This document shows, one piece after another, positions 61,097-64,000 of a stretch of 64,000 bases of DNA. Origin of the DNA: an uncultured delta proteobacterium (lineage in GTDB: Bacteria; Desulfobacterota; RBG-13-43-22); contig CAWJJC010000028.1 of NCBI GenBank assembly GCA_963843145.1, positions 32,001 to 96,000 on the forward strand, given 5' to 3'. Made by a program: the position numbers and the translations under genes. The notes under the pieces were generated by a model. That model was not told the DNA's origin, did not search any database, and was given only the letters and a program-made list of their open reading frames with translations. Every line of letters starts with the position of its first letter. Position 1 is the stretch's first letter.

Positions 61097-61906
61097 ATGA
61101 AATCAATGGCTGGTTTAGGAAAAAAGGAAAGAGAACGGCTTTCGGCCATCCTCCGGGAAACGAAAGGGACAATTTCGGTCGAGGAAACCGGGAAAATTCT
61201 TGGGATAAATCAAATAATGGCGGCCAAGATGCTGTCCCGTTGGGTCGGGCAGGGATGGCTGTCCCGGGTCCGCCGTGGGTTATATGTTCCGGTCCCTCTG
61301 GAATCTCGAACCACGGACGTCCCTTTGGAAGATCCCTGGATCGTGGCTTCCCGGTTATTCAACCCTTGCTATATCGGCGGGTGGAGTGCAGCCGAGTACT
61401 GGGACCTGACGGAACAAATCTTTCGAACGATTATTGTCATCACCCTTCAACGTCCCAGAGACCGAAAACCAAAAATCAAAGATATTGAGTTCTGGGTCCG
61501 TTCAACGAAATCCGAAGGTTTCTTTGGTTTTAAACCTGTATGGAGAGGAGAGGTTAAGGTAAACGTCTCCGACCCAACCCGGACTATACTGGACTTGTTA
61601 GCCGATCCCGGTCTAGGAGGGGGGGGCCGTTCCGTAGAGGATATGCTGATCAATTATCTTAAATCCGATAAAAAGGATTTGAATCTCCTGCTGGAATATG
61701 CGGAGCGGTTAGGTATTGGAGCGGTATATAAACGTTTGGGATTTTTGCTGGAACGATATGCCCCCGAGGAACAAGAGGTCATTCGGAAATGCCGTGAAAG
61801 GCTTTCAGCCGGTAATGCCAAACTCGATTCGAACCTTCCATCCAACCGATTGATAACAAAATGGCGCTTATGGGTTCCCGGGCGAAACGGAGGCCAAGAC
61901 CCTTGA
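61097..61906 (+). CDS. abiEi: AbiEi-family type IV antitoxin
   Basis: GWLSRVRRGLY, YIGGWSAAEYWDLTEQ, VSDPTRT, KRLGFLLE. Confidence 0.88.
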   Translation: MKSMAGLGKKERERLSAILRETKGTISVEETGKILGINQIMAAKMLSRWVGQGWLSRVRRGLYVPVPLESRTTDVPLEDPWIVASRLFNPCYIGGWSAAEYWDLTEQIFRTIIVITLQRPRDRKPKIKDIEFWVRSTKSEGFFGFKPVWRGEVKVNVSDPTRTILDLLADPGLGGGGRSVEDMLINYLKSDKKDLNLLLEYAERLGIGAVYKRLGFLLERYAPEEQEVIRKCRERLSAGNAKLDSNLPSNRLITKWRLWVPGRNGGQDP

Positions 61907-63328
61907 TCAGTAGGCAGGAGGTACTGGAATTTGCCCATGAGCTAAGACTCGCTCCGAATATTGTGGAAAAAGATTATGTCCTGGGGTGGGTCTTGGCGGG
62001 AATTTATCAATACCCCGCTTTTGGGAAAAGCTGGGTCTTTAAGGGAGGGACTTGTCTTAAAAAGTGTTTTTTCGAAACGTACCGTTTCTCGGAGGACCTG
62101 GATTTCACATTAACCGACCCTGGCCATATTGACGAAGAATTTCTCAGGAACTCATTCGGTGAAATCGTGAATTGTATGACCAGGCCGGTATGTAATCCCA
62201 ATAGACGCGCTTCGTTTCGACGTTTATCAAAACCCGAGAGGGAACCAGTCGGCCCAGGGGAGGATCAGTTATAGAGGGCCTATGAGAAAAGGCGGGGATC
62301 TTCCTCGGATTAAATTGGATCTGACCAATGACGAGATTTTGGTATTGGATCCTGTCCAAAGGGAAATTCACCATCCCTACTCGGATAAGGCGAAAGATGG
62401 CTTCTGGGCTTATTGCTATTCATTTGAGGAGGTTTTTGCCGAGAAGATAAGAGCCCTAGCGGAAAGAGAAAGGCCCCGTGACCTATACGACGTGATCCAG
62501 ATCTTTCGTCATGAAGAATTAAGGCCGGACAGGATCGTCGTTTTCGAAACACTTGAGAAAAAATGTTCCTTCAAAGGAATTGCGGTTCCAACCATTGAAT
62601 CCTTAGGTAAAGAACCCGAGCGTTCCGAACTGGTGGCCGAGTGGGAAAACATGCTCGGCCACCAGTTACCGGCCTTACCACCTTTAGAGCAATTCTGGGA
62701 AGATCTCAAAGTCTTTTTTAAATGGCTGCTCGGGATTGCCGAATTAATCGTCAAGCCGAGTTTCCCAATTCCAGTCGCAAGGATTGATCCAGGATGGCGC
62801 CCTCCGGATATGTTTCAGGTCTGGCATGGTTCTACATCAATGGAGACCATTCGCTTTGCCGCTTCCAACCGGCTGTGCATTGACTTGCAATATAATGGCA
62901 GCCGAAGGCTAATTGAGCCTTATTCCCTGCGTCGTTCTCGGGAAGGGAATATCCTGCTATATGCGGTTAAACACAATACAGGAGAAGACCGTGCCTACCG
63001 AGTTGACCGGATTCAAGCCGCCGAAGTATCCAAGGTTCCTTTTGATCCTCGGTATCTTGTAGAACTTACATCTTCAGGCTCCCTGCACATCCCCCATTTA
63101 TCCCGACCCTCAAACGGACATCAAAGGCCCCGTACTAACCCGCAGGCAGGTCATTATAGATCTAGTAGATCCCTTTCTAGTTTCGGGGCAAAATTTATTT
63201 TCGAATGCCCCCTGTGCAATAAAAGATTTACGCATAATTCCAACCATTCATCCTTAAATAAACATAAGGATAAAAACGGCTATCCCTGTCCGGGAAGAAC
63301 AGGGCTTTATATAGACACAAAATATTAG
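61903..63328 (+). CDS. AbiEii nucleotidyltransferase fused to WYL and a C-terminal Zn finger (indels near 62170-62195)
   Basis: EKDY, FKGGTCLKK, RFSEDLDF, EKIRAL..R..PRDLYD; WYL-like R.IEPYSL...R.YRVDRI (62840-63030); CPLC...H...C tail. Confidence 0.85.
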
Positions 63329-63336
63329 AGGGATTC

Positions 63337-64000
63337 GTGAACTCAATCGATATTGTTCAAAAACTCTGGAATTACTGCAACGTCCTGCGCGACGACGGCA
63401 TGAGCTACGGCGACTACGTCGAGCAGCTTACCTATCTGCTATTTCTGAAAATGGCCAATGAAAGGGCCCGACCGCCCTATAACCAGCCGAGTATTGTTCC
63501 GGCAAAATATAGCTGGGAAAGTCTCCTGAAAAAGGATGGGGACGATCTGTTCGATCACTACCGACACCTCCTGGAGAACCTGGGCAATGAAAAAGGTCTG
63601 CTGGGGCTGATCTTCAATAAATCCCAGAATAAGTTCCAGGACCCGGCCAAGTTGCGCCGCTTGATCGTGGACCTGATCAACAAGGAAAATTGGTCCATGA
63701 TGAGCGCCGATGTCAAGGGGGATGCTTATGAGGGATTGCTGGAAAAGAACGCCCAGGACACGAAATCCGGCGCCGGGCAGTATTTTACGCCTCGCCCTTT
63801 GATCCGAGGCTATCATGGATGTAATGGTCGCCGAAACCCGGGGATACCATCTGCGACCCGGCCTGCGGCACAGGTGGTTTCCTGCTATTGGCCCACGATT
63901 ATATCGTGAAGCACTACCCGAATATGACCAAGGGCGAAAAACGGAAACTAAAGGAAAATACCTTTAAGAGTTGGGAACTGGTCCAGAGCACGGTGCGTTT
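63337..64000 (+). CDS. hsdM: Type I R-M methyltransferase subunit (indels near 63805-63830; runs off the window)
   Basis: [46 protein letters not shown] in the shifted frame. Confidence 0.93.

Follow-up and report, generated by a model that had tools for sequence, protein, structure and literature searches.

Dy et al. reportedly described the AbiE system of Lactococcus and Streptococcus agalactiae in 2014 as a type IV toxin-antitoxin and abortive-infection system, and the toxin is said to carry the Pol-beta-type nucleotidyltransferase (NTase) motifs hGG/S and DxD, a third acidic residue and a C-terminal R-x-RDLYD. The joining of such a toxin to a WYL domain is already in print and not new: Makarova et al. 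2014 (PMC4012209), in the passage that deals with enzymes fused to WYL, list an 'AbiGII-like nucleotidyltransferase (DUF1814)' among them and propose ligand sensing. PrrC and Ronin, in turn, are presented in parts of a preprint (Silas et al. 2023) as suicide modules coupled to restriction-modification (R-M) systems. Here we describe an AbiE locus, abiEi-abiEii followed by the methyltransferase gene hsdM, at the end of a 64,000-nucleotide stretch of an uncultured delta proteobacterium (contig CAWJJC010000028.1 of assembly GCA_963843145.1, positions 32,001 to 96,000; the window, hereafter), and compare it with these systems.

We read the locus, with a probability of about 0.7, as a low-GC (guanine plus cytosine) islet, gained by horizontal transfer, that holds a canonical AbiE pair of a large AbiEii-WYL-C2HC subfamily with an orphan hsdM behind it. 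The copy belongs to the widespread two-gene AbiE toxin-antitoxin defence module and is broken as assembled. An earlier note on this DNA had read the domains as we do, and correctly, but had taken the toxin for a sensor-gated backup of a type I R-M system and had not recognised it as a characterised system. As regards experiments, the last statement stands within the literature that we searched (subscription journals were not covered), where no experimental work on the AbiEii-WYL fusion or on its WYL/zinc tail was found; it does not stand for the fusion and the ligand-sensing idea, both of which are in the cited passage of PMC4012209. In these searches, WYL and DUF1814 came together only in that 2014 paper, and the papers listed for WYL and nucleotidyltransferase toxins deal, by title, with BREX-island proteins and BrxR-type WYL regulators.

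The AbiE pair and its toxin

The locus is laid out as follows (window coordinates).

60913..60967, no strand: perfect 26-nt inverted repeat with a 3-nt loop, 5' of the AT-rich abiEi leader
61097..61906, plus strand: abiEi, antitoxin/regulator, 269 amino acids as assembled (PF13338, PADLOC PDLC02271)
61903..62175, plus strand: abiEii N-terminal part, residues 1-91 of the intact form (TTG start; FKGGTCL, SEDLDF)
62166..62194, plus strand: break zone in abiEii, two frame changes (nucleotide alignment to locus L094)
62195..62833, plus strand: abiEii C-terminal half of the NTase/AbiEii domain (KLDLT, EKIRALAERERPRDLYD) and helical region (PF08843, tblastn)
62834..63040, plus strand: WYL domain, one helix then a five-stranded Sm-like barrel (PF13280, model, Foldseek)
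63041..63205, plus strand: basic Arg/Ser-rich linker (variable in the alignment, low model confidence, i.e., low predicted local distance difference test, pLDDT)
63206..63328, plus strand: putative C2HC zinc finger tail up to the stop codon (Cys 63206, Cys 63215, His 63263, Cys 63287)
63337..64000, continuing to about window-equivalent 64816, plus strand: hsdM, type I methyltransferase subunit (PF12161, PF02384)

The overlap of abiEi with the toxin gene, which had been noted before, is real: abiEi spans 61097-61906, the TTG at 61903 shares TTGA with its stop, and the two genes are translationally coupled. This TTG is the likely start of abiEii, as the start of the intact homologues of 470-480 amino acids corresponds to it in tblastn with P0003, the closest intact protein among the matches listed (78% identical to the toxin of the window, and identical to the gene in locus L094). 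AbiEi scores 34 bits on PF13338 (AbiEi_4) and reaches E 2e-109 on the PADLOC AbiEi model PDLC02271. Its last ~8 residues as assembled are probably misread because the AAA run at 61885-61887 is one A too long, and a 99%-alike contig of the public run X1 has one base fewer there; the alternative frame ends in ...GRTEAKTLDQ with its stop at 61911-61913 and matches the L094 end (...GRTAEVKNLDQ and stop), with an 11-nt gene overlap.

In the list of open reading frames (ORFs) the toxin gene is split into 61861-62274 (137 amino acids) and 62282-63328 (348 amino acids), and PF08843 (cut-off 22.5) matches both, at 52.7 bits over profile positions 3-54 on the former and at 67.1 bits over positions 96-232 on the latter. 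The AbiEii motifs that had been called from the letters (FKGGTCL, SEDLDF, KLDLT and RPRDLYD) are all found in the frames of the window and are invariant in an alignment of 36/36 intact homologues. The PADLOC AbiEii model PDLC02317 (396 positions) covers residues 1-398 of P0003 at E 1e-188, spanning both the NTase and the WYL domain; therefore, defence-finding tools would label the locus AbiE. NCBIfam has no family for the toxin, the antitoxin or the upstream 101-amino-acid ORF. With respect to fold, the N-terminal 280 residues of a P0003 model match MenT4 (6y56), JHP933 (4o8s) and MenT3/TglT in Foldseek, with E 2e-7 to 1e-5, a target template modelling score of 0.54-0.62 and a sequence identity of 11-18%.

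The WYL-like stretch of the earlier note (RRLIEPYSL...RAYRVDRI) lies in frame with the C-terminal half of AbiEii and is recognised by PF13280 (28.4 and 29.3 bits vs. a cut-off of 21.8). A model of the window's own last 199 residues, built with a 110-sequence alignment, reached a pLDDT of 83.4, with 95-97 in the barrel, 90-97 in the zinc tail and 54-58 in the linker. Foldseek against the PDB returned ten matches to it at E <= 0.001, all of them DriD or PafBC chains (DriD 7tzv at E 3e-4), with BrxR 7qfz (root-mean-square deviation 1.9 over 74 columns) and CapW next in the list; that is, the top structural matches are all WYL proteins, and the possibility that the domain might not be WYL by structure, named earlier as fatal to the interpretation, did not materialise. 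The WYL hallmarks E340, P341, Y342, R345, Y367, R368 and D370 are invariant in 36/36 intact members, and so are the putative zinc ligands C437, C440, H456 and C464 in 36/36 homologues. The linker before the finger is variable (columns 410-450 of alignment A1) and predicted to be disordered. Both the Arg/Ser linker and the Cys/His cluster behind the WYL domain are thus present as described, although the spacing of the latter reads C-x2-C-x15-H-x7-C and not CPLC-x13-H-x7-C. Pfam C2H2 models score 14-16.5 bits on the tail, below their cut-offs, and PDB profile matches are weak (E 0.012-1). The WYL barrel, the basic linker and the zinc finger may together form a module that binds single-stranded nucleic acid.

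Family spread, the orphan hsdM and the islet

The subfamily is large. Of 8000 candidate proteins scored against the 348-amino-acid piece, 6544 match it at E <= 0.001; PF08843 and PF13280 occur together in 106 of the 120 best matches, most are 470-480 amino acids long, and the databases name them 'AbiEii/AbiGii toxin family' or 'predicted nucleotidyltransferase component of viral defense system'. At least 591 of 599 candidate stretches in one-genome-per-species contigs encode relatives, and record titles of relatives include Pseudomonadota, Thermodesulfobacteriota, Nitrospirota, Acidobacteriota, Myxococcota and other phyla. The C-terminal 199 residues gave 801 matches at E <= 0.001 among 1.84 billion cluster representatives. 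Of the 150 best, 109 were aligned (P0002 and matches ending before the zinc tail were left out), and in the alignment of 110 sequences that includes the window piece, 85 match WYL at E <= 0.001 and 29 match AbiEii. Stand-alone WYL-zinc proteins were considered and rejected, as the short matches are fragments collinear with the full-length toxin; hence, the WYL-zinc module seems to be specific to AbiEii.

Gene context was counted in the best 80 relatives from each of two collections, species genomes and metagenomes. AbiEi lies directly upstream of the toxin in 79/80 genome loci and in 60/60 metagenome loci having at least 900 nt upstream, and, apart from AbiEi, no conserved neighbour gene was found among the genome loci. 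Therefore, this is an ordinary AbiE pair, in which no sensor is needed to restrain the toxin. Ten of the 80 relatives (L017, L032-L035, L037, L041, L048, L069 and L070; their contig ends were not checked one by one) end at about residue 392-417, with the WYL domain kept and without the C2HC tail, and the 396-position PADLOC model matches this shorter form.

hsdM follows the toxin gene within ~50 nt in 7/80 genome loci (65 of the 80 have at least 1500 nt downstream) and in 8/56 metagenome loci that have 700 nt or more of downstream sequence; under a looser rule, it is adjacent in 18/160 loci. In a FastTree tree of 133 toxin rows, from which 13 loci not spanning residues 10-385 and 14 with internal stops had been dropped, 9 changes are required to place the 16 rows with an adjacent hsdM, and well-supported branches force at least 7 of these; the shuffled mean is 15.3, and 0/500 shuffles are as low. 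Therefore, hsdM linkage is recurrent yet a minority state. Complete hsdR-hsdS-(x)-abiEi-abiEii-hsdM operons occur in L004, L007, L029 and L108, and other hsd gene orders in L026, L039, L053 and L152/L153; in L006/L096, the trio abiEi-abiEii-hsdM has neither hsdR nor hsdS inside 10 kb. Two loci, L102 (~1060-1140) and L104 (~1090-1160), have an HsdM-like fragment (at most 84 amino acids) 5' of abiEi besides a full hsdM downstream, so the abiE pair may have entered these loci by insertion into hsdM or by recombination inside it. Type I operons with an abiE pair also hold a 531-amino-acid DUF6119 protein and a recurring family-less protein of 205-228 amino acids (L007:7407-9002, L004:8441-9058, L007:12962-13648), which may be further embedded defence genes.

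In the window, hsdM begins as closely behind the toxin gene as had been stated, with its GTG at 63337, 8 nt after the abiEii stop (63326-63328), and it matches PF12161, PF02384 and the PADLOC MTase_I model (E 1e-100). The type I R-M operon of the earlier note is not there: hsdM stands alone, and tblastn with the HsdR and HsdS of L004 found nothing in window positions 40001-64000 and the next 15 kb. Elsewhere in the genome, distant type I genes, hsdS genes among them, are found only on contig C20 (23-32% identity), and the weak hsdR-like matches are one on C20 at 29% identity and a 94-amino-acid helicase-like stretch on contig C28, ~411 kb away. The orphan hsdM is thus probably, on gene order in relatives, the leftover of an hsdR-hsdS-abiEi-abiEii-hsdM arrangement. 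Behind it, on the opposite strand, are unrelated genes for a 261-amino-acid protein without family, a metallo-beta-lactamase-fold protein, a DUF3786 protein and an acetyl-CoA carboxylase carboxyltransferase.

The islet at ~60.2-65.6 kb has a GC content of 46-50% vs. ~54% for the contigs, and a search of three genomes of the same genus found no orthologue of the locus. Because of these two observations, a low-GC islet of ~5 kb would fit horizontal acquisition. A search for direct repeats or att sites on its flanks gave nothing beyond short matches of a size expected by chance; the nearest tRNA gene (His) lies ~4.4 kb past the islet. The hairpin at 60913-60967 looks like a terminator or boundary hairpin and may mark the left edge of the low-GC island, and a small inverted repeat in the abiEi leader (TTGAAT-N8-ATTCAA, near 61047-61066) could be an AbiEi operator. 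Two islet ORFs have no Pfam or NCBIfam family, one of 261 amino acids on the minus strand (L003:4947-5732; window-equivalent 64946-65731) and one of 101 amino acids (window 60557-60862). PADLOC gives the latter a marginal PD-Lambda-2_C match (E 0.0017) and nothing for the former.

Broken frames and competing explanations

One uninterrupted abiEii reading frame is not present as assembled. The gene is read in three frames (61903-62175, 62172-62192 and 62195-63325): in tblastn, residues 1-92 of P0003 match the first frame to about 62175 at 76% identity, residues 92-98 (LYDQAGM) are read in the second, and residues 100-476 match the third from 62195, gap-free, at 79% identity. Hence, the earlier statement that full AbiEii motifs and WYL share a frame is true of the C-terminal half but not of the whole gene. 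Relative to L094, 62166-62194 lacks 1, 3 and 1 bases in the nucleotide alignment, and the frame shifts twice. hsdM carries single-base insertions near 63808 and near 63828 and changes frame once more near window-equivalent 64682; both insertions are missing from a contig of run X5, which comes from an unrelated metagenome. In total, there are ~7 indels within 2.8 kb, across abiEi, abiEii and hsdM. Compared to L094, the ratio of nonsynonymous to synonymous substitution (dN/dS) is 0.06 for hsdM, 0.15 for abiEi and 0.12 for abiEii, with amino acid identities of 95%, 86% and 78% and dS values of 0.38, 0.51 and 1.1, respectively. This uneven identity suggests a mosaic origin or recombination anchored in hsdM.

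We consider assembly error the likelier source of the frame breaks, at somewhat better than even odds, because the genes have been under strong purifying selection relative to L094 and because the assembly holds error-ridden contigs. The source assembly is a 32-contig bin with 6.9% contamination, and one of its rpoB/rpoC copies (C19:83900-90300) is in at least six frame pieces with internal stops, besides an intact copy at C3:124993-133184. The idea that the former is a noisy duplicate of the latter was rejected, as blastn shows no similarity; C19 looks like a contaminant contig from another, poorly covered organism with many indel errors, and its broken rpoB/rpoC is a warning on local assembly quality. 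The competing explanation, which we regard as possible though clearly below even odds, is that the locus is a real, decaying remnant, with frameshifts both in the toxin gene and in the hsdM orphaned by the loss of hsdR and hsdS, so that the module is non-functional here. Such decay does occur, since L008 has an hsdM stump of 68-85 amino acids behind an intact abiE pair, and hsdS and hsdR are missing from the present locus. Against decay stand the dN/dS values of 0.06-0.15, the 99%-alike sequence without the insertion at 61885, the demonstrable presence of frameshift-ridden contigs in the assembly, and the state of the invariant family columns: 112/116 are retained in the window, and of the four that are not, three fall in the break zone, which leaves S366A as the one changed invariant residue outside it. 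As a rough expectation, neutral decay that allows three indels in abiEii should also alter several invariant positions.

Several observations weigh on the other side, i.e., against an intact canonical pair obscured by error. The ~7 indels are local to abiEi-abiEii-hsdM, as the adjoining genes are open and long ORFs cover the remainder of the 64-kb window well; rpoB and rpoC (C3) and uvrA (C22) are each a single open frame, and dnaE on C17 appears as one frame of 1160 amino acids. The abiEii indels fall outside homopolymers, and selective inactivation of toxin and orphan methylase would give the same pattern. Contigs from public runs did not cover 62111-62211, and none of the runs listed contains the source organism (best share of words 0.25). 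The closest database proteins listed, P0001 (97% identical) and P0002 (85%), are also N-terminally short, and 16/109 cluster representatives start at the same internal Met (MLAHQL, MLGHQL or MLEHQL; residue 252; e.g., P0130, P0141, P0143 and P0146), a hint that the toxin is often truncated in nature; such frequent N-terminally cut copies in public data could reflect either real inactivation or gene calling on broken assemblies. Further, the full-length AlphaFold model of P0003 has an overall pLDDT of just 66.9, with the WYL region poorly predicted. Errors could nonetheless plausibly be confined to the islet if it varies between strains and had thin read coverage. The three same-genus genomes, having no orthologue, gave no synteny evidence on the indels, and ORF density per contig did not distinguish good from bad contigs.

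As for what an intact module of this kind would do, its MenT/AbiEii relatives suggest that AbiEi would repress the operon via its winged helix and neutralise the toxin, and that the released toxin would use nucleoside triphosphates to extend or block tRNA 3' ends, halting translation; modification of tRNA 3' ends may be expected across the AbiEii-WYL family because the MenT relatives act there. The WYL/zinc tail might hold the RNA substrate or set the target range, a role we put forward tentatively, at just short of even odds, or be an allosteric ligand sensor, which we hold to be a weaker possibility. The substrate handle is the more likely of the two given the retention of the antitoxin, the markedly basic character of the linker, and the known role of WYL domains fused to or working with enzymes (Pif1 helicase; WYL1 with Cas13d) as nucleic-acid handles. 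The earlier note's model, taken at the level of the family, would have the WYL domain and zinc finger sense phage single-stranded DNA or RNA, nucleotides or restriction products, switch the toxin on and thereby back up R-M. We find this unlikely, even though it draws support from DriD and CapW, the nearest WYL folds, which were solved with single-stranded DNA as the activating ligand according to the titles of their PDB entries, from the invariance of the WYL hallmarks, and from the clustering of hsdM adjacency on the toxin tree over at least 7 changes. The same sensing proposal was made for the DUF1814 fusion in the WYL passage of Makarova et al. 2014 (PMC4012209), and that suicide modules tied to R-M exist is shown by PrrC and Ronin in the Silas et al. 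2023 preprint. Against the model stand the almost universal antitoxin (79/80 and 60/60), which means that a sensor is not required for control, the scarcity of hsdM adjacency (7/80 and 8/56), the handle role of enzyme-associated WYL domains and the absence of the zinc tail in 10/80 relatives; ligand binding and toxin activity are, moreover, predictions from sequence here. At this particular locus, the backup role finds no support, with a copy that is frame-broken, no HsdR or HsdS, an hsdM linkage that is a minority state and AbiEi retained.

A different functional account would make abiEi-abiEii-hsdM a working trio: the lone HsdM would serve as decoy or guard, detecting anti-restriction proteins and then setting the toxin free in the manner of PrrC or Ronin. 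With no hsdR or hsdS inside 10 kb, the trio is present in L006/L096 as well as in the window, where the hsdM frame is broken in the assembly. L006/L096 and L094 have an intact hsdM; around the one in L094, nothing hsd-like follows in ~2 kb downstream, and the upstream sequence is just 890 nt, so that hsdR and hsdS could still lie beyond it. The strong constraint on hsdM (omega 0.06), its 95% identity between window and L094 vs. 78% for abiEii, and the tight abiEii-hsdM gap of 8-50 nt would also fit a trio. We nevertheless judge it very improbable: ~88% of family loci have no adjacent hsdM, complete hsdR-hsdS-abiE-hsdM operons exist and make the loss of R and S the simpler origin, several of the short contigs have no upstream sequence, and no binding of DNA mimics is known for HsdM in the absence of HsdS. 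A combination of the two accounts, namely that AbiEii-WYL-C2HC is a ligand-gated tRNA nucleotidyltransferase, repeatedly inserted upstream of hsdM, that reads single-stranded nucleic acid of phage or restriction origin, with the orphan hsdM as guard or decoy, is improbable as well, though less remote than the trio as stated. If true, it would put sensor and effector in one protein and couple a second defence line to R-M. Hence, we favor the reading of the locus as an ordinary AbiE pair in a low-GC islet with an hsdM left behind.

Under this favored reading, the window copy itself adds little, being broken as assembled and having no restriction partner, and the interest lies with the family. 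The AbiEii-WYL fusion is very common in environmental bacteria and apparently without experimental study, and about 1 in 8 family loci directly precedes hsdM, via repeated independent events. WYL domains are understood almost wholly as transcription-factor switches, and the fusion to AbiEii would couple WYL directly to an enzyme. Intact relatives such as L094 or L006 would be suited to asking whether WYL gates the toxin or holds its RNA substrate.

Comparison with known systems

The locus is most similar to the AbiE system, with two overlapping genes, an antitoxin with an N-terminal winged helix, a toxin with DUF1814 NTase motifs, and strong Pfam and PADLOC matches. It differs in the predicted toxin, which is ~476 amino acids long here vs. 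~260-300 and additionally has WYL, a basic linker and C2HC. The best structural matches of the toxin's N-terminal 280 residues are MenT3/TglT, MenT4 and MenT1 (6y5u, 6j7s, 6y56, 8an4) and JHP933 (4o8s), and none of the MenT toxins or JHP933 has a WYL domain or a zinc tail.

PrrC-EcoPrrI and Ronin resemble the locus in having a toxin gene in or beside type I hsd genes, and Ronin also lacks hsdR; PrrC is an anticodon nuclease and RonA a membrane peptide of 61 amino acids, and both require HsdM and HsdS. Unlike them, the present locus has no hsdS, and its toxin comes with its own antitoxin.

The fusion to which Makarova, Anantharaman, Grishin, Koonin and Aravind devoted a single sentence and a supplementary file in 2014 (PMC4012209) has the same domain combination and comes, in the passage concerned, with the same ligand-sensing proposal; that passage does not mention the zinc tail, the near-universal AbiEi partner or the recurrent placement before hsdM. 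Finally, DriD, CapW, BrxR and PafBC are the closest fold matches of the C-terminal model, in line with the Pfam WYL score above the cut-off. These proteins are helix-turn-helix transcription factors in which WYL controls DNA binding, whereas here the chain has no helix-turn-helix, and its WYL domain sits between an enzyme toxin and a putative zinc finger.

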